Source: an uncultured Gammaproteobacteria bacterium
Lineage (GTDB): Bacteria; Patescibacteriota; Microgenomatia; UBA10105; UBA927
Reading direction: 5' to 3'
Assembly (NCBI GenBank): GCA_964629685.1
Contig: CAZVTT010000001.1
Coordinates: forward strand, 244,603-308,602
Length of the DNA stretch: 64,000 nucleotides
Below the pieces are notes generated by a model. It was given only the letters and a program-made list of their open reading frames with translations, ran no database searches and was not told the origin of the DNA. Shown here piece after piece: positions 3,042 to 15,527 of this stretch (the first letter of the stretch is position 1; the number at the start of each line of letters is the position of its first letter). Position numbers and translations under genes: made by a program.

Positions 3042-4784
3042 GTGATACACTGGATATACTCCATGATCCGCTATTTAGTGACGATTATCACCCTCTGTCT
3101 GTTAACGCTTTTCAGCCTCCAGCGAGGAGTCTCTGCACAGGTGTGTGACCCCAGTTGTACGAATGCTATAGAGTGTCGTGACAAAATAGCCAAATGTCAG
3201 GAAGCCTGGAATCAGATGGAAACGGCAAAGCAGCCTCATGTAGACGCGTTAAAAAAAATGGAAGCGGATATCGTCGCATTTCAAAACAGAATTAAATCAA
3301 TCGAAAAAAATGTGGTGCAGAAAGCCGCGGAGATAAAAGAAGGTGAGAAAGAGTTAGCCGGCTTGTTGGGTGTAGCAGAGCGGCGGATCAGACAGTTCTA
3401 TATCCGTAGTTTTACCAATACACCGTTTGTAACATTCTTATCTACAGAAAATATAGGCATGATTTTGCGGACCATGGCCTATCAGAACGCAGTTACGGAG
3501 GAAGATAAACGATCTATAACCCAAACCGCTGTTTCCGTAAAAGGACTAGAGGAAAAAAAGAAAAGTTTAGAGTCGGAACGCTCATCACTGGCGTACCTGA
3601 AAGAAGAAACGGATAAACGGGCTGTATCCGTACGGAAATTAGTGAACGATGCGTCCGCATACCAGTCTAAACTTACGGGTATAATTGCCAGCCTTACTAC
3701 CCAGCAACAGGCAATTCTTTCCGCCAGATCAGGTACATTTACGACAAGCTTAGGAGAAGTCCCGCTTGCGGATGATCCGAACGCTTCCCCGAATTACAAT
3801 CCCGGATTCTCTCCGGCATTTGCCGGGTTCTCTTTCGGTGCGTATACCCATCGGAAGGGGATGAGTCAGTACGGTGCGAAAGGCAGGGCGGAGTCCGGTC
3901 AAAACGTAAATGATATTCTCAAGGCGTACTACGGTAAAACACCTGTCGGCAAAGATACCGGAGGATCAATCTCCGTTACCGGTATCGGCAGTATAAATTT
4001 TGAGGAGCATTATTTATACGGTATTGCGGAAATGCCTGCCAATTTTCCGAAAGAAGCACTCAAAGCCCAGGCTATTGCCGCCAGATCTTATGCCTATAGA
4101 TATAAACAACAGGGAACATCTATTTGTATTACGCAATCGTGTCAGGTGTTTTCACAATCGAAGGCAAATAATCCCCCTGCCGAATGGAAATCCGCGGTAC
4201 AGGAAACGCGTGGGCAGGTATTGGAAGATATTGTGGCCTACTATTCATCCACCACCGGTGGATACAGCACTACGTCCGGATGGGATACTAAATGCGGTAA
4301 TCAGGGATGTTGGACCGGAGATGCGTACGAAAAGATCGCCGGCAGTCCTTGGTTCTATAAAGGATGGTATACCAGCGAATATTATAATAATTCCGCTAAA
4401 TGCGGCCGAAGTCATCCTTGGTTAAATCAGGAAGAGTTTGCCGATATTCTAAACGCCTGGTTGGTGCGGAAACAGGGGAATGACGGGGATGCCAGCAGGG
4501 TACTGCCGGTCACTATCAGCAGTTGTGGAGTAGCCGGGGCATCGGGTAATCCCTATTCCATGAGTGAAATGCGGGACAGGGCAAATGCCTTGGGAGGGGC
4601 ATTTACCAGCGTATCCAGTGTAAAAGTGACATACAATACCGACGGATATACCGATAGTGTTATTTTCCAAACTAACAAAGGGGAAGCCAAAATTAGCGGC
4701 TCAGAATTTAGGGAAGCATTTAACTTACGTGCGCCGGGTTACATCTCTATTCGAAGCCCTTTGTTTAATTTAGAGAAAAAGTAG
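3042..4784 (+). CDS. SpoIID/LytB-domain protein with an N-terminal coiled-coil (EnvC-like) region
   Basis: N-terminal TM/signal, a long coiled-coil segment, then a SpoIID-type block (HRKGMSQYGAKGRAESGQNVNDILKAYYGKT) and a C-terminal domain. Confidence 0.65.
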   Translation: MIHWIYSMIRYLVTIITLCLLTLFSLQRGVSAQVCDPSCTNAIECRDKIAKCQEAWNQMETAKQPHVDALKKMEADIVAFQNRIKSIEKNVVQKAAEIKEGEKELAGLLGVAERRIRQFYIRSFTNTPFVTFLSTENIGMILRTMAYQNAVTEEDKRSITQTAVSVKGLEEKKKSLESERSSLAYLKEETDKRAVSVRKLVNDASAYQSKLTGIIASLTTQQQAILSARSGTFTTSLGEVPLADDPNASPNYNPGFSPAFAGFSFGAYTHRKGMSQYGAKGRAESGQNVNDILKAYYGKTPVGKDTGGSISVTGIGSINFEEHYLYGIAEMPANFPKEALKAQAIAARSYAYRYKQQGTSICITQSCQVFSQSKANNPPAEWKSAVQETRGQVLEDIVAYYSSTTGGYSTTSGWDTKCGNQGCWTGDAYEKIAGSPWFYKGWYTSEYYNNSAKCGRSHPWLNQEEFADILNAWLVRKQGNDGDASRVLPVTISSCGVAGASGNPYSMSEMRDRANALGGAFTSVSSVKVTYNTDGYTDSVIFQTNKGEAKISGSEFREAFNLRAPGYISIRSPLFNLEKK

Positions 4785-5781: not shown

Positions 5782-7611
5782 ATGAAGATTCTTCCTGCTG
5801 TAGCTTCCGTGGTGACCCGTGCGTCTCCAACCGATTGGGCGCAAGTACTACAAACACCCCAGGCCTATGCGGTAATCCAGACTCTTGATTCTTCCGGACA
5901 GGCATTGCGGACCGGTGTTTCTCTCTTGGGTAGTCTTACCAGATTATTGGAAAAAATGCCGGAATCGGTTCAGGAATTAAAAACGGCGGTTCAGGAAATA
6001 GATGGTGAACATATAGTTTCTTTAACGGTGGTAGTTCCTCGAGGGCAGACACTGGATGTAATCCAGCGTGGTGAAGGAAGTGTCTATCTTAAGCGCGGAA
6101 AGCAACTGGCCTGTTTATTAAGCGCAGAGGGTGTCATATCTGGCGACGTCGCTGAAGGGGATGTGGTGATTTTAGCGGATAAAAATGCATCAGAATTACT
6201 TACGGACGCAGAAATTATTACCGCTGTTGATCACGAGCTTACTGCTGAGGAAATAGGAGAGCGGTTGGCAGTGGTTCTCAACGAAAAATCCGATAATGAA
6301 GGTGCTGCCATGCTGGTGTTTCAGATAAAAGACATAGTAGAGGAAGAACCGGAACAGGAGAGTGTTGCGGAAACGGAAGATACTGACACAATTCCCGAGG
6401 CTGACGATCCGGTTCCCTTGCCTAGTGCGATTTCTCACCCGCTTCCGCAACGCATCAGACATTTTTTGGTACGAATTAAACCTCGCATTGTTAAATTAAT
6501 CCCCGGTTCAAATAAAAAGTTAGCGGTTATTGTGTTTATTTTTGCCGGACTTTTTGGTATTAGTGTGTATTTGGGTATCAAAAAACAGGGAGAAAATGTT
6601 AGTTCAAAAAATGTGGCCGAGGCCGTATCACAGGCTCAGTCTTTATTGGATGAAGGTTTGGGTTTGCTTTCCGTCAATCGTGAGCAGAGTAGAATAAAGT
6701 TAGAAACGGCACAAGCATTACTGCAAAAGTATAAGGACAAACCGCCACTATCTAAAGAAGGAAAACGTGTCCCTCAACTTTACCAGCAAATATCCGATAA
6801 CCTGGAAGTAGCAAAACAAATCATCCGCGGCGAGCCGCAGCTTTTTTACGATCTGGACTTAATAAAAAAAGGCGCATATATCCACAAATTTGCTGTCTCA
6901 GACGATACCTTGGGGATGTTGGATGAAAATCAAAAAACTGTTTTTGTAGTCCGTATTCCCACTAAGGATGGTGATGTGCTGGCCGGTGGAGAGCCCTTTA
7001 CCGCAGCCACTGCGGTAGCTGCGTATGGAAAACAATTTTACGTGCTTACCGGTTCCGGAATTTACGAAATCAGCAGTAAGGGAAAAATTCCGGCCAAGCC
7101 GGTTATAGAGCATGACGAAACATGGGGGACAATCGGCGCTTTGGTGGCGTATGGTGGTAACCTGTACCTGTCCGATTTGCAGAAGAGCAGGATCTGGAAA
7201 TACGTAGCCACAGAAGTGGGATTTGATGTACGGCGGGAATATTTGAATCCCGATACGTTACCCAATTTATCACAGACTACGTCTATGGCCATCGACGGGC
7301 ATGTTTGGTTTGGTACAAAGAATGGCGAAATACTCCGATTTGCACAGGGAAAAGCGGACACATTTTCTCCAATTGGCATAGAACCGCCACTCGGTGAAGT
7401 GATTTCTGTTTATACTACTGACGATTTAGCTAATATTTATATCCTGGATGCTGCGGGGAAGCGGGTAGTTGTATTGCAAAAAGACGGACGGTATACTGCC
7501 CAATACGTTTGGAACGGGGAGATTTCTCCTGAACTGTTCCTGGTTTCCGAACAGTATAAAAAAATATTTTTGGTTGCGCAGGGAAAGTTGTATGCACTTG
7601 ATCTGCGCTAA
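5782..7611 (+). CDS. hypothetical single-pass membrane protein with a C-terminal beta-propeller-like repeat region
   Basis: 609 aa with an acidic segment, a TM helix (LAVIVFIFAGLFGISVYLGI) and C-terminal repeated motifs (YVLTGSGIYEI, LYLSDLQKSRIWKY, IYILDAAGKRVVVL, KLYALDL) reminiscent of NHL/propeller blades. Confidence 0.4.
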   Translation: MKILPAVASVVTRASPTDWAQVLQTPQAYAVIQTLDSSGQALRTGVSLLGSLTRLLEKMPESVQELKTAVQEIDGEHIVSLTVVVPRGQTLDVIQRGEGSVYLKRGKQLACLLSAEGVISGDVAEGDVVILADKNASELLTDAEIITAVDHELTAEEIGERLAVVLNEKSDNEGAAMLVFQIKDIVEEEPEQESVAETEDTDTIPEADDPVPLPSAISHPLPQRIRHFLVRIKPRIVKLIPGSNKKLAVIVFIFAGLFGISVYLGIKKQGENVSSKNVAEAVSQAQSLLDEGLGLLSVNREQSRIKLETAQALLQKYKDKPPLSKEGKRVPQLYQQISDNLEVAKQIIRGEPQLFYDLDLIKKGAYIHKFAVSDDTLGMLDENQKTVFVVRIPTKDGDVLAGGEPFTAATAVAAYGKQFYVLTGSGIYEISSKGKIPAKPVIEHDETWGTIGALVAYGGNLYLSDLQKSRIWKYVATEVGFDVRREYLNPDTLPNLSQTTSMAIDGHVWFGTKNGEILRFAQGKADTFSPIGIEPPLGEVISVYTTDDLANIYILDAAGKRVVVLQKDGRYTAQYVWNGEISPELFLVSEQYKKIFLVAQGKLYALDLR

Positions 7612-9943: not shown

Positions 9944-9981
9944 TAGTCGAAGCGGGTTAAAACTGGTATAATTGTATGCCT

Positions 9982-10067
9982 GGAGAGTTGGCTGAGTGGT
10001 CAAAAGCGAGGGTTTGCTAAACCCTTGAGCCGAAAGGCTCGCACAGGTTCGAATCCTGTACTCTCCG
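9982..10067 (+). tRNA. tRNA-Ser (anticodon GCT)
   Basis: Cloverleaf read by eye: acceptor GGAGAGT/ACTCTCC, anticodon stem AGGGT/ACCCT with loop TTGCTAA, long variable arm, T-arm CAGGTTCGAATCCTG, discriminator G. Confidence 0.8.
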
Positions 10068-10068
10068 C

Positions 10069-10167
10069 CCTTCGTCGCTACGCTCCTCAGGGTAAACTTC
10101 ATTGCAGGGGTTCGCCCTGATGATAGTGCGGTAAGTAGTAACCCTGAGGAACGGAGTGACGACGAAG
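10069..10167 (+). other. long imperfect hairpin occupying the entire spacer between two tRNA-Ser genes
   Basis: CCTTCGTCG...TCAGGGT at the 5' side pairs with ACCCTGA...CGACGAAGG at the 3' side (perfect 9-bp and 7-bp arms with an imperfect middle). Confidence 0.5.
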
Positions 10168-10254
10168 GGAGAGGTCGCATAGTGGACTAGTGCGCTTGTC
10201 TTGAAAACAAGTGTGGGCGCAAGCCTACCGCGAGTTCGAATCTCGCCCTCTCCG
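10168..10254 (+). tRNA. tRNA-Ser (anticodon TGA)
   Basis: Acceptor GGAGAGG/CCTCTCC, anticodon stem CTTGT/ACAAG with loop CTTGAAA, long variable arm, T-arm GCGAGTTCGAATCTCGC. Confidence 0.8.
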
Positions 10255-10353
10255 CCTTCGCTCGCCGGAGCGAGCTACGGCGGACGAAGTCCGCAAATAG
10301 ATCGCGAAGGAGAGATTCGGTCGCCAGAGCTTTAGCGACGGCGAGCTTCGCAT

Positions 10354-10653
10354 ATGACCGATGGTCTCGATGAAATTAAAGGGCGACCTTCGGCGGACGC
10401 AGTCCGCTTTTATTATGTCTACATTTTAAAATGTGGTGATGGTTTGACTTACACTGGATGCACGGATAACTTGAAAGAAAGAATTGATCGCCATCAAAAA
10501 GGACAAGTCCCGGCAACGAAAAATCGTTTACCCGTGTCACTTACTTCCTATTTTGCATTTTCCGATAAATATACCGCTTTCAATTTCGAACACTATCTTA
10601 AATCCGGCTCGGGGAGAGCATTCCTAAAGAAGCACCAAATAATTGACCGTTAA
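10354..10653 (+). CDS. GIY-YIG nuclease-domain protein (small stand-alone GIY-YIG)
   Basis: FYYVYILKCGDGLTYTGCTDNLKERIDRHQ is a canonical GIY-YIG N-terminal motif. The true start is uncertain because the first 17 codons overlap a repeat hairpin. Confidence 0.65.
   Translation: MTDGLDEIKGRPSADAVRFYYVYILKCGDGLTYTGCTDNLKERIDRHQKGQVPATKNRLPVSLTSYFAFSDKYTAFNFEHYLKSGSGRAFLKKHQIIDR
10393..10411 (+). terminator. GC-rich hairpin GCGGAC-GCA-GTCCGC + TTTT (possible terminator for the tRNA pair); second copy of a 17-nt repeat
   Basis: Perfect 6-bp stem with a 3-nt loop followed by TTTT. A near-identical hairpin without the T-tract lies at 10280..10294. It overlaps the 5' part of the predicted GIY-YIG ORF. 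Confidence 0.3.
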
Positions 10654-10707: not shown

Positions 10708-11076
10708 ATGATTCAAATAACTTGGTATGAGTTAGCGTCTTATTTAACTAACATCGTTTTAGCATTTTTAAGTATTTATCAATTTTTAGCCTCAAAAAAA
10801 GAAGAGGAAAATACAAAGTCAAAAATTAGAATGTTACAGAACCAAGCAGAGGGGATAAAAAATGCTTTACTTCAAATAGGTCAAAATTCAAACGCCTTCA
10901 GCAGCAAGGATGATATTGCTGCCGCGGTTACAGCTGTTTCACAATCAGCTGTAACATTAGATCAAGCAATGGTTGAAGAAAGATTCTATTCTGAAACAGA
11001 AATAAAACAAAAGAGAATGGAAATGGAAAAACAACAGAAGAAATTGTTTTCGATGCTTAAAACTAGTCAATCGTAA
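10708..11076 (+). CDS. hypothetical protein with an N-terminal TM helix and a coiled-coil
   Basis: 122 aa. TM helix (LTNIVLAFLSIYQFLA) followed by a Lys/Glu/Gln-rich predicted coiled-coil. AT-rich codon usage. Confidence 0.4.
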   Translation: MIQITWYELASYLTNIVLAFLSIYQFLASKKEEENTKSKIRMLQNQAEGIKNALLQIGQNSNAFSSKDDIAAAVTAVSQSAVTLDQAMVEERFYSETEIKQKRMEMEKQQKKLFSMLKTSQS

Positions 11077-11084
11077 GGAGGAGA

Positions 11085-12038
11085 ATGACATTTATTGCAA
11101 GTGTAATTGCAAAAAAAGGTGTTGCGATTATTGCTGATTCATTGGTGACGATGTCTAGGCCTGTAATGGAGGCAGATGACTTTAGGCATTATGTTCAAAG
11201 TAAAACAAGTCCAGACGGAAAAGTAACTCAGTTGAACCCAGATGACTTGTTGAAACTCTTTCATAAGAAGCCATCACACACAAAGGACTATGAGGAAAAA
11301 TTGTTTCAGTATGATAAATATACAGCAATAACGGTTGCGGGAAGGGCGGTTATTAACAATCGACGAATTGGCGAGGTTATTCATGAAATTTCTGACAAAC
11401 TTCGTAAAGCCAGGATGTTGAATAAGCCGATTGCTAATAAAATAATTGACTTTTGTTCGGAGCTTGAAGTAATTGCAAAATCGCATTTAGCTAAGTATAA
11501 ATTTATTGGACTAACAACATTTATTGTTACTCATTACGATAAACGGGCTGAAAAGACAAGTATTTTTAGAGTTAATATTAATAATGCGAGTGAGGCGAAC
11601 TTACAAAATCCTAGCTTTAAGTTAGTTGAGTTTTCAGAGAGTTTTGCTATTGAAAATGTAGTTTGCGATGGCCAAAATGGAATCAGTGAAAGAATTCTTT
11701 TGGGAGGAATAGATGTTATTTTAGCTACTGCCGAGAAACTTATTGACCGTATTGATACTGACTACGGGTTAAAACTAAAGCCTACTTATAAAAAACAACT
11801 TACAGATGAGATATTCCAGCAGTTTCAAAGTGAATTAAAAATTGCAAAACTAAAAGGTCTGAGTTTACAGCAAGCTGTTGATTTAGCATATTTATTGATG
11901 AAGATTGAGATAGATTTTCAAAAATATACTGAGGATATGCCGACTGTAGGGGGAGTAATCAAAATAGCAGTTATTGACTCCGAAGGAGTGAGATTTATTG
12001 CTGGAAAAGAAATTATTGATCCCCGTGAGCACTTATAG
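11085..12038 (+). CDS. proteasome-beta/HslV/Anbu-like N-terminal-nucleophile hydrolase-fold protein (divergent; candidate Thr1)
   Basis: Strong RBS (AAGGAGG) 9 nt upstream. The N-terminus MTFIASVIAKKGVAIIADSLVT resembles HslV [21 protein letters not shown]. A later block KLFQYDKYTAITVAGRA resembles the HslV Lys33 region KVRRLYNDKVIAGFAGG. The C-terminal strands (VGGVIKIAVIDSEGVRFI) look proteasome-like. It carries insertions relative to HslV. Confidence 0.45.
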   Translation: MTFIASVIAKKGVAIIADSLVTMSRPVMEADDFRHYVQSKTSPDGKVTQLNPDDLLKLFHKKPSHTKDYEEKLFQYDKYTAITVAGRAVINNRRIGEVIHEISDKLRKARMLNKPIANKIIDFCSELEVIAKSHLAKYKFIGLTTFIVTHYDKRAEKTSIFRVNINNASEANLQNPSFKLVEFSESFAIENVVCDGQNGISERILLGGIDVILATAEKLIDRIDTDYGLKLKPTYKKQLTDEIFQQFQSELKIAKLKGLSLQQAVDLAYLLMKIEIDFQKYTEDMPTVGGVIKIAVIDSEGVRFIAGKEIIDPREHL

Positions 12039-12039
12039 T

Positions 12040-12216
12040 ATGAAAAAAACACAAAAAATATCAAAAACAGACACAGAGGCAATTTCCGAAATTACACAAA
12101 GAAAAGCCGAGATTTTAAGTAAACAGAGAGATTCAATGTTGCAGGAGCTTAAAGACGCAATGAAAGACAAAAAAATAATAATTAAGGGAAATATATCAAA
12201 CTTACTTGGATATTAG
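12040..12216 (+). CDS. small charged hypothetical protein (58-72 aa)
   Basis: ATG sits 2 nt after the stop of the upstream gene. The ORF track extends it to 11998 in the same frame. Lys/Glu-rich and probably helical. Confidence 0.3.
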   Translation: MKKTQKISKTDTEAISEITQRKAEILSKQRDSMLQELKDAMKDKKIIIKGNISNLLGY

Positions 12217-12290
12217 CTCCCATTATTTACTCTATTATCTCACCATAAGTGCTCCAATTATATCCCAAGTGGTCAGCTAATTGATAGAAT

Positions 12291-12686
12291 ATGATTATGA
12301 AAATTAACCAAATTGATGCTGAAAATTTCCCCCTAGTTGAAGTTGTTTCCAATGAAGTGCTTGTTAAAAATACTCAAGATGTTCTTGATCTTTTAGGGGA
12401 AGTTGGTTTCTCAAATATAATTCTGTACGATCATAATTTTGAATCAGACTTTTTTGATCTAAGTACGAACAAATTGGGAGAAATTCTCCAAAAGTTTACA
12501 AACTACCAAGTTAAACTAGCGATTATTGGTGATTTTGAAAAGTATCCAAGTAGAGTCTTAAAAAAATATATTCACGAAACGAATAGGGTAGGAGATTTTT
12601 TATTTGTTACGAATATGGAAGCCGTTAAAGATAAATGGATAAGTAGTAATAAACGTTCTAATTCTGTTCCAGGCTGCCCGCAATAA
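12291..12686 (+). CDS. DUF4180-domain protein
   Basis: The pattern DVLDLLGEVGFSNIILYDHNFESDFFDLSTNKLGEILQKFTNYQVKLAIIGDFEKYPSRVLKKYIHETN matches my recollection of DUF4180 (...DFFDLSTGIAGEILQKF.NY..KLAIVGDF..Y.SKSL.DFI.ESN). Confidence 0.55.
   Translation: MIMKINQIDAENFPLVEVVSNEVLVKNTQDVLDLLGEVGFSNIILYDHNFESDFFDLSTNKLGEILQKFTNYQVKLAIIGDFEKYPSRVLKKYIHETNRVGDFLFVTNMEAVKDKWISSNKRSNSVPGCPQ
12658..12684 (+). repeat. 27-bp direct repeat, copy A (CTAATTCTGTTCCAGGCTGCCCGCAAT)
   Basis: Seen directly. It pairs with copy B at 13967..13995 (2 differences). It overlaps the last codons (NSVPGCPQ*) of the DUF4180 gene. Confidence 0.8.
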
Positions 12687-12733
12687 ATAGATGCACCAGT
12701 GGGTATGCTGCTGCTACTACGAGTTTTAAATAC

Positions 12734-13969
12734 ATGCGTATTTTTTTTCGTTCTTCTTTTAGAATTAGTTTAGTTTTATTCAGTATAGTATTAAGTCTTC
12801 TGGTAGTCGAAAAAATATTAGAAGTACGTGGCTATACGTACAAACCACTATTAGTTGCTCAGAATATTCGACCGGAAACCGCTGGGTATTTTTACGACCC
12901 AGAACTGATTTATACGGCTAAGTATCAGATAAATAATCCTTTACCCTCTGAAGTTGGTTTAAAAAATCAAATTCAGCTTAGACCCGACAGTATCAGTAAC
13001 GCCTCTGCGTCCGGTAATACGTTTACCGTTGTTACGCTTGGGGATTCGTTTACCTATGGTCACAATCTCGCGGATAGTGATACGTACCCGTCTCAGCTAG
13101 AGACAGTCCTTACGGAAAATGGATATAACGTGAATGTATTCAACGCCGGTGTGTCCGGGTACGGTATAGATCAAGAATACGTGTTTTTAAAACGAATTTT
13201 GGCTTCATACAAACCGAATCTGGTGATATTGAATCTGAATGAGAACGATATCTCTGATTCAAACGAAAATTGTCTCTTCAAGAAGGAGTTATCGGGGGAT
13301 TTTGTAAGAGTAACCGGTATTACCAGTAATACGTATATACTGTACCAGGTGTTAGTACACGTTCCGGAAAGTATAAAAAAATCGCGTGTATTAAATCTTT
13401 TCCTAGCAGGATTAAGCCTGGAAGGTCCACACAACTTTGTTTGCTCCCAAAAATACACGTCCGAACTAGAAAGATTGATGCTCGATAAAATTGAAGGCTT
13501 AATTACCAAGATCGCTCATGAGCTTCCTTCCGGAACGAATCTGATGTTAACGTTCGTCCCTATGCAGGATTATTTTAGGTATACCACAAAAGATACGTAT
13601 CGGCTTTCTAACCGTAAAAAAATAATCAAGCAACTGAGTAATTTTTCAATTTTAGATGTGAACAAGAAAATTGCGGGCAACCTGTATCCTGAAATTTATG
13701 TTTTGCGTGAAGATACGGATGTTAGGATAGCCGGTGCGAATACCGTCAGTGGTTTTGTTGATATGCCGTATAGTTCGGTAGATATACCATATCCCGATAC
13801 TCAATTATTCTTAAATGCATTAACGGAGCCTGAATCTCCTTACGGATCCAGACACCCCAGTAGACTTGGTAATTTTCTCTTCGCTCGCAGCGTTGCAAAA
13901 GAAATTATTGAAAAGTATCTTGGTGAACAACACCTTGAATCATATAATAACTCGATAAAAGTTCCGTAA
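12734..13969 (+). CDS. SGNH/GDSL-family hydrolase with an N-terminal membrane anchor
   Basis: N-terminal TM, GDS block (VVTLGDSFTYGH) and a Gly block (FNAGVSGYGIDQ). Confidence 0.6.
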   Translation: MRIFFRSSFRISLVLFSIVLSLLVVEKILEVRGYTYKPLLVAQNIRPETAGYFYDPELIYTAKYQINNPLPSEVGLKNQIQLRPDSISNASASGNTFTVVTLGDSFTYGHNLADSDTYPSQLETVLTENGYNVNVFNAGVSGYGIDQEYVFLKRILASYKPNLVILNLNENDISDSNENCLFKKELSGDFVRVTGITSNTYILYQVLVHVPESIKKSRVLNLFLAGLSLEGPHNFVCSQKYTSELERLMLDKIEGLITKIAHELPSGTNLMLTFVPMQDYFRYTTKDTYRLSNRKKIIKQLSNFSILDVNKKIAGNLYPEIYVLREDTDVRIAGANTVSGFVDMPYSSVDIPYPDTQLFLNALTEPESPYGSRHPSRLGNFLFARSVAKEIIEKYLGEQHLESYNNSIKVP

Positions 13970-13995
13970 TTCTGTCCCAGGCTGCCCGCCAATGT
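13967..13995 (+). repeat. 27-bp direct repeat, copy B (GTAATTCTGTCCCAGGCTGCCCGCCAATG)
   Basis: Seen directly, immediately after the stop of the SGNH hydrolase gene. In the frame of copy A it would encode NSVPGCPPM*. Confidence 0.8.
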
Positions 13996-14029: not shown

Positions 14030-15187
14030 CTAATTTTCTTTATTAAATGTATCCGGATTATTAATGGTAACGGTTTTTTGTATTTCAGGGTGACTTCTAA
14101 GGTACTGACTAATTACTTCAGATATAGTTTGAGCAACTAAGGCATGTCCAGATTCATTGTAGTGCTTATCTTTTGGGTTAAAGTATGAAGTATATTTATC
14201 TGGATCAGCTTTTAACATTGATTCACCGATATCTATAAAAATAAGATTGTCATTTGCCGCTAGTTGATTAAGCATTTTCTTGCGTTTATCATATTTTTCC
14301 AGATAGATTTCTTTTTCCCCTGGATCGTATTGTGTAGGAAGTAAAACAATAATAGGGAATGCGCCTCTTTTCCTTGTTACACCAACTAAATCGTTAAGTA
14401 TTGCGGCAATGACGTTCTCAGAATCCTGATTTGTGGCACCTGTTTCGGTATGCAAATGCAGATACTGCATGATGACACTTAATGCATGTCGACCTGTTAG
14501 GTATATATTGAGATACTCCAATGCATTCGGATTAAGCGCCAGTACTGTAAGCCACTTATTGGGTGGTGGAACAGGATTATTCGTATTAGCTAGTACATTA
14601 TTTTTTAACTTGAAAAATGGTTTACCATATCCTCTAAATGTACGTAAGGAAACTCGATCAAAATCATCTAAAATAAATGCCATGATGTGGAATGTATGTG
14701 ATATTGTCTCTGCGTCCCGTAGGTACCACAAATAATTTTGATCGATACCGTAACCTCCCTGCGCCATGTTATATGGCTGTAAGCTATTACTACTTAAAAG
14801 AGAACACCAATTTTTATAGTCATCCACACCGTATCCAAAAGTAAAAGAGTCACCCGAGCAAATAGTTGTGAATGCAGGATTGCTGGTATGCGTAGGAGTA
14901 ATTCGGAATCGATGTGAATTCGTAGTTAGATTTTTTCCCGGCCCATACAAATTTAACAATGATAGATTTTGTTTATTTATCCATCCTAGCAGTGGATCGT
15001 ACTCAGTATGTGTGTCTTTAATAACTCTTGAGGAGGTATTAACCACACGTTGATAAAAATGATAAAAAGAAAGAATTCCTTCAATACTTGCAAACAACAG
15101 ACATGTAAGAACAATTTGAAGAGCAAAAGTGACGAAATATTTCTTAATAGGGGAGATAATCTTATATAACTTCGGTAGCAAGGCCAT
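14030..15187 (-). CDS. SGNH/GDSL-family hydrolase with an N-terminal membrane anchor (paralog, convergent with 12734..13969)
   Basis: TM anchor, GDS block (ICSGDSFTFGYG), Gly block (AQGGYGIDQ) and a C-terminal DKHYNESGH block (Asp/His catalytic block of SGNH hydrolases). Confidence 0.6.
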   Translation of the reverse strand: MALLPKLYKIISPIKKYFVTFALQIVLTCLLFASIEGILSFYHFYQRVVNTSSRVIKDTHTEYDPLLGWINKQNLSLLNLYGPGKNLTTNSHRFRITPTHTSNPAFTTICSGDSFTFGYGVDDYKNWCSLLSSNSLQPYNMAQGGYGIDQNYLWYLRDAETISHTFHIMAFILDDFDRVSLRTFRGYGKPFFKLKNNVLANTNNPVPPPNKWLTVLALNPNALEYLNIYLTGRHALSVIMQYLHLHTETGATNQDSENVIAAILNDLVGVTRKRGAFPIIVLLPTQYDPGEKEIYLEKYDKRKKMLNQLAANDNLIFIDIGESMLKADPDKYTSYFNPKDKHYNESGHALVAQTISEVISQYLRSHPEIQKTVTINNPDTFNKEN

Positions 15188-15527
15188 ATTATAGTTTTAT
15201 CCTGTCGGCATCATCTACAGTCCTATAGTTCTAATTGGGTAGTTGATAGAAATATGATTTCCATCATATCAGAATGGCGAATTCTTATAAAAGATTAAGC
15301 AGAAAGTTTACTTCGTATGCATCTTGAAACACGGTGATTCTTGCTAGAATATCCTCACCACGGAAATCAACACAGCTGATTTTTCGGGAAAATTTGTTTT
15401 TATTCATTTGGGAAAGAAGCAATAGAAATATTCCGTCACTTTTACAACTGCAAGTTAACGTGTAATCCCATCAGGCAATCCGTTATGAAGAAGTTGTTTG
15501 AGATAATAGTAAGCTAAGTTTCCGTGA

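Follow-up and report, generated by a model that had tools for sequence, protein, structure and literature searches.

Small, host-dependent bacteria of the kind studied here are thought to be poor in repeats and mobile elements, and little is understood of the way in which they acquire accessory genes. Several described systems place short repeated sites between genes. Clusters of attC sites that have no integron-integrase (CALINs) are recognised by at least two same-strand sites separated by less than 4 kb, without an intI in the vicinity (PMC4889954). Repetitive extragenic palindromic (REP) sequences and their hairpin-forming doublets (REPINs) are short, lineage-specific palindromes, found 3' of open reading frames (ORFs) both as hairpins and as decayed half-forms (PMC3116915, PMC3337134, PMC3733652). 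Here we analyse a 64-kb stretch (the window) of the 953,690-nt contig CAZVTT010000001.1, in which two direct repeats, eA and eB, bracket a single gene for an SGNH hydrolase (SGNH#1) placed directly behind a DUF4180 gene. Together with L035, a related contig to which the element scan was extended, this locus defines a new family of repeat elements with an array layout. Whatever the mechanism behind them, the two repeats are, with high probability, copies of the conserved 5' half (~37 nt) of this lineage-specific intergenic element.

The ungapped core of the pair, TAATTCTGT[T/C]CCAGGCTGCCCGC, is 23 nt long and identical at 22 of 23 positions, with a spacing of 1308 nt. Past a 1-nt indel both copies read AAT, which gives the 26/27 match first reported; on the 5' side the likeness continues as ATAAACGTTC versus ATAAAAGTTC, with a 2-nt indel between, to a total of about 37-39 nt. 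The 10 nt lying 5' of the originally noted repeat are part of the element, since the same block is present in the related L035 copies. A 13-nt identical core stands directly before the point where eA and eB diverge.

No third site exists in the window at 3 mismatches or fewer, and 100 shuffles gave 0 matches. Among the longest near-exact direct repeats of the window, only tRNA paralogues and one paralogous gene pair exceed eA/eB, and the background of such repeats ends at 17-18 nt. The Logan assemblies of SRR14271372 and SRR14271365 are 100% identical at the locus over 7.2 and 5.9 kb, and in that of SRR14271370 two contigs reach into the SGNH gene, one from each side. Being reproduced in three independent read-set assemblies, the repeat is real and not an assembly artefact. 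The original prediction, made from the sequence of the window, was therefore right that a non-random repeat surrounds exactly one gene. Its string for copy B starts at 13966 and not at 13967, an error of one position.

L035 is a 9,436-nt contig of the Joint Genome Institute (JGI; Ga0376277_0027209), first met as a part of it, L005. Loose 23-mer matches in relatives included two in this part, each 9 nt past a stop codon and together bracketing one gene. L035 shares with the window the arrangement gene / tRNA-Arg(gcg) / tRNA-Ser(cga), a DUF4180 protein (64% identical) and three further orthologous proteins (~45-65%). It carries at least five element copies. Four of these, e1 to e4, part five consecutive co-oriented single genes directly 3' of tRNA-Ser(cga), all of low G+C content at third codon positions (GC3; 0.26-0.36 in the four measured). 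The order is isochorismatase, e1, HXXEE, e2, NUDIX, e3, a 107-aa gene, e4 and GNAT, followed by a convergent HhH-GPD gene. At its own orthologous tRNA-Arg/tRNA-Ser(cga) site the window holds no array, so that array content differs between the two relatives.

L035 has a second accessory cluster, behind tRNA-Ser(gct), and there another diverged copy, e5, accompanied by a partial copy in tandem, lies upstream of a hexapeptide-transferase gene; alignment supports it (p <3e-4). At L035 866-969 there is a tandem of one and a half copies that encloses no gene: a diverged copy with its full 5' half and centre, then a 5'-truncated copy with a promoter-like motif. This tandem could be a deletion product or an ORF-less unit.

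Detection is reciprocal between the two genomes. A profile built from the four L035 copies only returns eB (E = 4e-4) and eA (E = 2e-3) as its top two matches in the window, and no others; one built from the two window copies only returns e1, e2 and e4 in L035, at E values between 6e-5 and 1e-3. Neither profile gave a match at six further loci of homologous genes, and a 6-copy profile scores just its member copies (E 1e-9 to 1e-12). In the conserved half, any two L035 copies share 74-94% identity, eA and eB 83%, and copies from different genomes 64-78%. The other ~70 window spacers and the other L035 spacers hold no element copy. All 8 copies lie in one orientation, that of the array genes and of the tRNA-Ser gene heading them. 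By a rough estimate, random placement would occupy consecutive junctions in both genomes with a chance of the order of 1e-4.

The third window copy, e0, is decayed and precedes the DUF4180 gene, which is bracketed by e0 and eA as SGNH#1 is by eA and eB. The alignment with L035 e2 is 55 nt long and takes in both the promoter-like motif and the ATG (score 28, p ~7e-4; control spacers 10-17); by profile alone e0 is not detected (E = 42). It ends in the extended -10-like TGATAGAAT (12282-12290), followed by 6 nt and an ATG at 12297. Composition changes stepwise at both repeats: GC3 of SGNH#1 is 0.364 and its codon usage is intermediate to host-like, and the genes on both sides have atypical values of 0.24-0.29, with none of the 65 other window genes at or below 0.29.

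Every element opens with (TA[A/G])AAAAGTTCCAAT.TCGTCCCACGTTGCCCGC; the full-half reading is ATAAACGTTCTAATTCTGTTCCAGGCTGCCCGC for eA and ATAAAAGTTCCGTAATTCTGTCCCAGGCTGCCCGC for eB. Copies e1, e3 and e4 are imperfect palindromes of 62-66 nt with a common 9-bp terminal stem, AAAGTTCCA with TGGAACTTT. Two inner stem pairs are altered on both sides with pairing kept, and e1 and e3 form imperfect hairpins (DNA z = -3.2 and -2.6). In e2 and all window copies only the 5' half is present and no hairpin forms. A terminator or structured RNA was considered and rejected, as both strands of eA/eB fold no better than shuffles, no terminator-like site lies at the repeats and Rfam gave no match.

On its 5' side the element is tightly set against the upstream gene. 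Copies e1 and e2 follow the stop codon immediately, e4 overlaps it and e3 lies 5 nt past it; the six strong copies start from 12 nt before to 5 nt after that codon. In the window both ORFs enter the element. DUF4180 reads through the whole half, leaving 49 nt to the SGNH#1 ATG, and SGNH#1 ends inside eB, which holds its last codons and the TAA with which the copy B core begins; eB itself sits in the 60-nt spacer ahead of the convergent SGNH#2.

On the 3' side, each L035 element is followed by TGnTAGAAT or TGnTATACT, 6-7 nt and the ATG of the next gene. After e1 that ATG is in frame and 30 nt upstream of the called start, and the GNAT start codon falls inside the 3' arm of e4. We infer that these motifs may act as promoters. 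The layout 'TGnTA.AAT/TATACT + 6-7 nt + ATG' is seen at 12282-12299 of the window and at 6075-6095, 7072-7088, 7572-7587 and 7947-7962 of L035; its recurrence suggests that transcripts in both genomes may be leaderless.

As first proposed, the final residues of the 131-aa DUF4180 ORF are indeed encoded by copy A. This copy is not, however, the native 3' end of that gene: 19 aligned homologues end two residues past the conserved W116, and the Pfam domain ends near 115. The window protein runs 13 residues beyond the homologues' end, and its residues 117-131 (12639-12683) form a non-conserved tail extending into eA. In the -1 frame, TAG TAA TAA (12644-12652) stands exactly at the homologues' stop point, which makes a 1-nt frameshift, then read-through into former spacer DNA, a plausible origin of the tail. 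The original prediction held that deleting the interval would regenerate an intact DUF4180 3' end. This has no meaning here, since both alternative tails are read-through into repeat DNA. The motif-6 nt-ATG layout and the homologues also make 12297 a likelier start of the gene than 12291.

The DUF4180 genes of relatives have ordinary GC3 (0.39 and 0.47), so the window gene sits in acquired DNA. The relatives (L005/L035, L006, L018) have other neighbours, and no repeats were found flanking DUF4180 itself in them. Its nearest named relative is from Candidatus Roizmanbacteria.

We now propose, with a probability of roughly 0.45, that the repeats are decayed junction or recombination sites of a cassette-like gene array near tRNA genes. 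Single genes would be added one at a time by site-specific recombination at a pre-existing element, catalysed by a recombinase encoded elsewhere, and the element would be duplicated with each addition. SGNH#1 would be one cassette unit and DUF4180 another; ORFs running into elements would yield both the DUF4180 tail and the SGNH stop codon inside the repeat. The array of the window is probably a fossil, since its copies have lost the 3' arm and the hairpin.

Gene addition is favoured by the single orientation, by the occupation of consecutive junctions in two genomes and by the absence of the element from the other spacers examined. It is favoured as well by the tight abutment to stop codons and by the copy that contains a start codon. 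The intervening genes have a foreign composition and are of types typical for cassettes (isochorismatase, NUDIX, GNAT, with a toxin-antitoxin pair nearby), and array content differs at orthologous tRNA sites. The insertion footprint first proposed thus survives in part: a cassette- or att-like reading is the best single explanation, and a one-off target duplication is not, given an element family, a decayed third copy and at least 5 copies in a relative.

More speculative is the idea of an integron-independent gene-cassette system in candidate-phyla-radiation-like bacteria, in which a trans-acting recombinase would work on the 62-66-nt palindrome AAAGTTCCA...TGGAACTTT, unlike attC; we consider it possible at best. 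Single genes with a promoter-like motif would then be stacked 3' of tRNA-Ser, SGNH and DUF4180 being two such cassettes. We found no description of such a system, and nothing in the literature searched that links integron-like cassette arrays to these bacteria.

Several observations weigh against the cassette-like array. eA and eB have no hairpin (z = +1.3 and +1.1), no significant 3' arm and no TGGAACTTT nearby. The core order of integron attC sites is reversed, the 5' arm containing GTT and the 3' arm AAC. Among the sequences scanned, two genomes only carry the family, and no repeats flank SGNH#1 homologues elsewhere. Neither the 50 window ORFs scanned nor the L035 gene calls contain a recombinase or transposase domain, which agrees with the earlier remark that none is nearby. 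The comparison suggested at orthologous DUF4180 loci, for presence or absence of the insert, gave no empty site in any available assembly or relative, nor an alternative or shuffled cassette order: relatives lie in other contexts without flanking repeats, and the 90% clusters of three locus proteins contain this organism only. Finally, REP elements, too, typically follow stop codons and sit in spacers of co-directional or convergent gene pairs (PMC3733652).

A palindromic family resembling REP/REPIN sequences, or miniature inverted-repeat transposable elements (MITEs), would require no gene insertion at all. The element would have moved into, or been kept in, spacers, the SGNH gene would never have been inserted, and eA and eB would be independent half-element relics. 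ORFs reading into elements are familiar from Rickettsia palindromic elements (RPEs) and Neisseria Correia elements, and the failure to find a recombinase or an empty site fits too. Intact copies form short imperfect palindromes whose terminal inverted repeats measure 9-11 bp, the half-element relics (e2, eA, eB) recall REP singlets as opposed to REPINs (PMC3337134, PMC3116915), and the sites lie 3' of ORFs, where REPs do (PMC3733652). Such a family would nevertheless have to account for 8 of 8 copies in the same orientation, and for their confinement to consecutive junctions of compositionally foreign arrays by tRNA-Ser genes, with none in the other ~70 window or other L035 spacers. Random insertion into spacers would hardly yield a GNAT start inside the e4 3' arm and three stops abutting or overlapping the 5' end. 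A target-site duplication cannot be seen, the half-unit by itself lacks palindromic form, and a CGTC tag occurs in the L035 copies and not in those of the window. We regard this explanation as rather unlikely, although the most serious of the rivals. A portable promoter/operator module, that is, a binding site with an extended -10 copied before unrelated accessory genes, would reduce the post-stop position to a by-product of tight packing. In e0, e2, e4 and e5b the homology does span block, TGnTAGAAT or TAGGTATAAT, 6 nt and ATG; the same '-10 + 6 nt + ATG' layout also occurs at other genes of both genomes. Set against this, eB has no same-strand gene downstream, no recognisable -10 follows eA at the right distance from the SGNH#1 ATG, and a consensus scan gave no promoter excess. 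Identity of 74-94% over more than 30 nt, with a long hairpin, far exceeds what a binding site needs, and we judge the module improbable.

Family membership also bears on the remaining explanations. A one-off insertion of a 1.3-kb SGNH segment into the native DUF4180 3' end, leaving a 27-bp target duplication or a private att core, would produce direct repeats around exactly one gene, the identical 13 nt just before the divergence point and the shift in composition at each of the repeats. However, the repeat does not belong to DUF4180, and the element recurs upstream of DUF4180 and at least 5 times in another genome. In addition, 27 bp is far above known transposition duplications, and the copies differ by one substitution and up to two indels. 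The one-off insertion is largely refuted by family membership and keeps very little probability. Still less probable is a remnant of a tandem duplication of the SGNH gene with its 3' flank, in which the upstream copy was mostly deleted and DUF4180 fused to the leftover 3' end. This would explain why the likeness reaches ~12 nt into the 3' coding end of SGNH#1 and why the spacing of 1308 is a multiple of 3, with the copy A TAA in frame with the SGNH#1 ATG; tandem SGNH paralogues do exist in one relative (L003). Yet the supposed 3' coding end, AAAAGTTCC, belongs to the element and in L035 comes after unrelated genes, no more SGNH-like sequence lies upstream of copy A, and the L035 copies account for the 5' extension without any SGNH gene. 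As for chance similarity or an assembly artefact, only the small copy number speaks for it; repeat statistics, three assemblies and reciprocal cross-genome detection refute it, and we give it practically no weight.

Other origins of the repeat were tried. Scanning for the 20-mer pattern TTCTGTNCCAGGCTGCCCGC answered the earlier suggestion to search genome and metagenome collections, and gave 10 genome and 9 metagenome contig matches, all single chance matches. They lie on unrelated, mostly high-GC (0.46-0.73) contigs with dissimilar flanks, the pattern being narrower than the family consensus, and a widespread repeat was rejected. The original prediction had named a repeat family, common genome-wide, as the outcome that would speak against an insertion footprint. 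A family is indeed present, in agreement with part of that outcome; its known copies are clustered in arrays. Viral origin was rejected as well, two pattern scans and one protein scan of viral contigs being empty.

A tRNA fragment is suggested at best, both by direct comparison with the tmRNA and every tRNA of the window and by later alignments. Between L035 e3 and the 3' end of its neighbour tRNA-Ser(cga), 14/16 positions agree (p ~0.008 before correction for 7 elements), and the window copies resemble the T-arm of tRNA-Ser(gct); att repeats remaining from repeated integration at tRNA genes would look like this. For other copies z is 2 to 3.9, with Ser tRNAs scoring no higher than those for Arg or Asn. 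tRNA genes are not matched by the element profile, and a tRNA link stays tentative.

The element accounts for two oddities of annotation, the extended DUF4180 tail and the hydrolase stop codon inside a repeat. Lying at the exact junctions of stacked foreign single genes behind tRNA genes in two genomes, it offers, as a profile and a degenerate pattern, a searchable signature for such arrays and for the enzyme that builds them. Should it prove to be of REP or MITE type only, it would still be a new repeat family, ordinary if REP-like and notable if a recombination site. Table 1 collects the features of the locus.

Table 1 Features of the SGNH/DUF4180 locus, in positions of the 64-kb window.
Feature	Position	Strand	Basis or remark
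tRNA-Ser(gct) and tRNA-Ser(tga), head of the low-GC island	9981..10256	+	Strand common to all element copies
Three closely spaced ORFs of low GC3 (122, 317 and 58 aa), located between e0 and the tRNA-Ser pair/GIY-YIG gene	10708..12216	+	
Decayed element copy e0 (AAGTGCTCCAATTATATCCCAAGTGGTCAGC...), upstream of DUF4180	12246..12290	+	Alignment with L035 e2
DUF4180 gene, 131-aa ORF	12291..12686	+	Pfam PF13788, residues 12-115
Element copy eA, conserved 5' half only (ATAAACGTTCTAATTCTGTTCCAGGCTGCCCGCAAT)	12649..12684	+	L035-only profile 12649-12683, E = 2e-3
Core, copy A (TAATTCTGTTCCAGGCTGCCCGC)	12659-12681	+	
SGNH#1, membrane-anchored GDSL/SGNH hydrolase, 411 aa, sole gene between eA and eB	12734..13969	+	Pfam
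Inverted partial core match (ATTGCGGGCAACCTG, 14/15 to eA) in the SGNH#1 coding sequence	13668..13684	-	Profile not significant, E = 0.26 and 1.9
Element copy eB, conserved 5' half (GATAAAAGTTCCGTAATTCTGTCCCAGGCTGCCCGCCAAT)	13955..13993	+	L035-only profile 13955-13995, E = 4e-4
Core, copy B (TAATTCTGTCCCAGGCTGCCCGC)	13967-13989	+	
SGNH#2, distant convergent paralogue, 385 aa, distal array end, GC3 0.288	14030..15187	-	

Both SGNH genes belong to families that occur in surface-polysaccharide gene clusters. The C-terminus of SGNH#1 is of normal length and ends as in 4 homologues; copy B as a lost C-terminal extension or hidden coding sequence was rejected on this ground. The inverted near-copy of the core at 13668-13684 falls in a stretch where SGNH#1 has 3 extra residues relative to homologues. 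SGNH relatives (L003, L004, L032, L034) have other neighbours. In L004 (5672-5749) the SGNH#1 homologue, 35% identical, begins 3 nt past a tRNA-Ala, between a GNAT gene and histidyl-tRNA synthetase. It resembles another single-gene insertion by a tRNA; a flanking repeat was not found there.

Upstream in the island, the three low-GC3 ORFs have no significant Pfam, NCBIfam or PADLOC match. The 97-nt spacer between tRNA-Ser(gct) and tRNA-Ser(tga) (10068-10170) folds into a very stable hairpin (-51 kcal/mol, z = -5.7, 0/200 shuffles as good), with no Rfam match at the gathering threshold. A GC-rich 25-nt direct repeat, 88% identical, lies at 10270-10294, just past tRNA-Ser(tga), and at 10383-10407, in the N-terminal coding sequence of the GIY-YIG gene; a related GGCGAGCTTC motif is found 3' of tRNA-Ser(gct) in L035. 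Downstream, a 20-nt inverted repeat (95% complementary) joins 15125-15144, at the 5' end of the SGNH#2 coding sequence on the minus strand, with 15424-15443, within the gene-free spacer of 340 nt at the island's distal end.

Two observations lie outside the island. A 26-nt near-exact repeat (25/26) at 1371-1396 and 1874-1899 falls in the neighbouring minus-strand ORFs 1361-1753 and 1864-2958, which are probably paralogues, the second with a T4SS-pilin domain. In L035, a flavin mononucleotide (FMN) riboswitch (3364-3501, 100 bits) precedes an EamA-family transporter gene.

How, then, does the element compare with known systems? The target-site duplication of a transposition event does not describe it: the repeat is not native to DUF4180, it recurs at other junctions and in another genome, and its copies differ by indels. 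Xer/dif modules, with their 28-bp pdif sites, have a similar site length and bracket single genes; here, by eye, neither a dif-like dyad nor XerC/XerD half-sites are present, and orientation is direct instead of alternating. Tandem integrative islands at tRNA genes, whose att repeats derive from the 3' end of the tRNA, are brought to mind by arrays immediately 3' of tRNA-Ser with direct repeats on the tRNA strand. Unlike them, the units are single genes, no integrase is found in the window island or L035 gene calls, and the resemblance to tRNA is weak and not Ser-specific. Correia elements and RPEs share terminal inverted repeats, an internal promoter-like sequence and ORFs that extend into the element or start in it, and differ in that the present element is much shorter (62-66 nt), has no visible target-site duplication and forms an array instead of being dispersed. 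MITEs combine terminal inverted repeats with target-site duplication; in this family the inverted repeats occur in L035 e1, e3 and e4 only, and no duplicated flank is visible at any copy.

With REP/REPIN sequences the element has in common the traits named at the outset. REPs are 20-40-nt palindromic units tagged GTAG or CGTC (PMC3733652), whereas the present half has a 3-bp internal stem only and lacks GTAG; CGTC appears only in L035 copies (TCGTCCC), with CTGT in its place in window copies. REPs are dispersed in many copies through extragenic space, in both orientations. The 64 kb of the window contain 3 copies of the element, all adjacent and on the same strand, and the copies of the two genomes cluster in one orientation at consecutive junctions of foreign gene arrays. 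No REP-associated tyrosine transposase (RAYT, a Y1 transposase) was found among the 50 window ORFs scanned.

CALINs differ from the element in their sites. The attC palindrome, in which R''/L'' pairs with L'/R' over ~57-141 nt, is not formed by the window copies, although L035 e1 and e3 do fold. Instead of a proximal RYYYAAC and a distal GTTRRRY, the ends AAAAGTTCCAA and TTGGAACTTTT have GTT proximal and AAC distal on either strand. A promoter-like motif accompanies each gene, arrays begin at tRNA-Ser and not at an intI/attI platform, and the window copies are half-sites without hairpin. In layout the agreement is close: e0, eA and eB lie within 1.8 kb on the + strand, with no Phage_integrase-type match in the 50 window ORFs scanned. 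As in CALINs (Cury et al. 2016, PMC4889954), the accessory genes are co-oriented, small and mostly single, each then followed by a ~60-nt imperfect-palindromic site. ORFs overlap the site at their ends, an integrase is missing from the vicinity, the cassettes have an atypical composition and, as among CALIN sites, similarity is greater within genomes than between them (PMC4889954).

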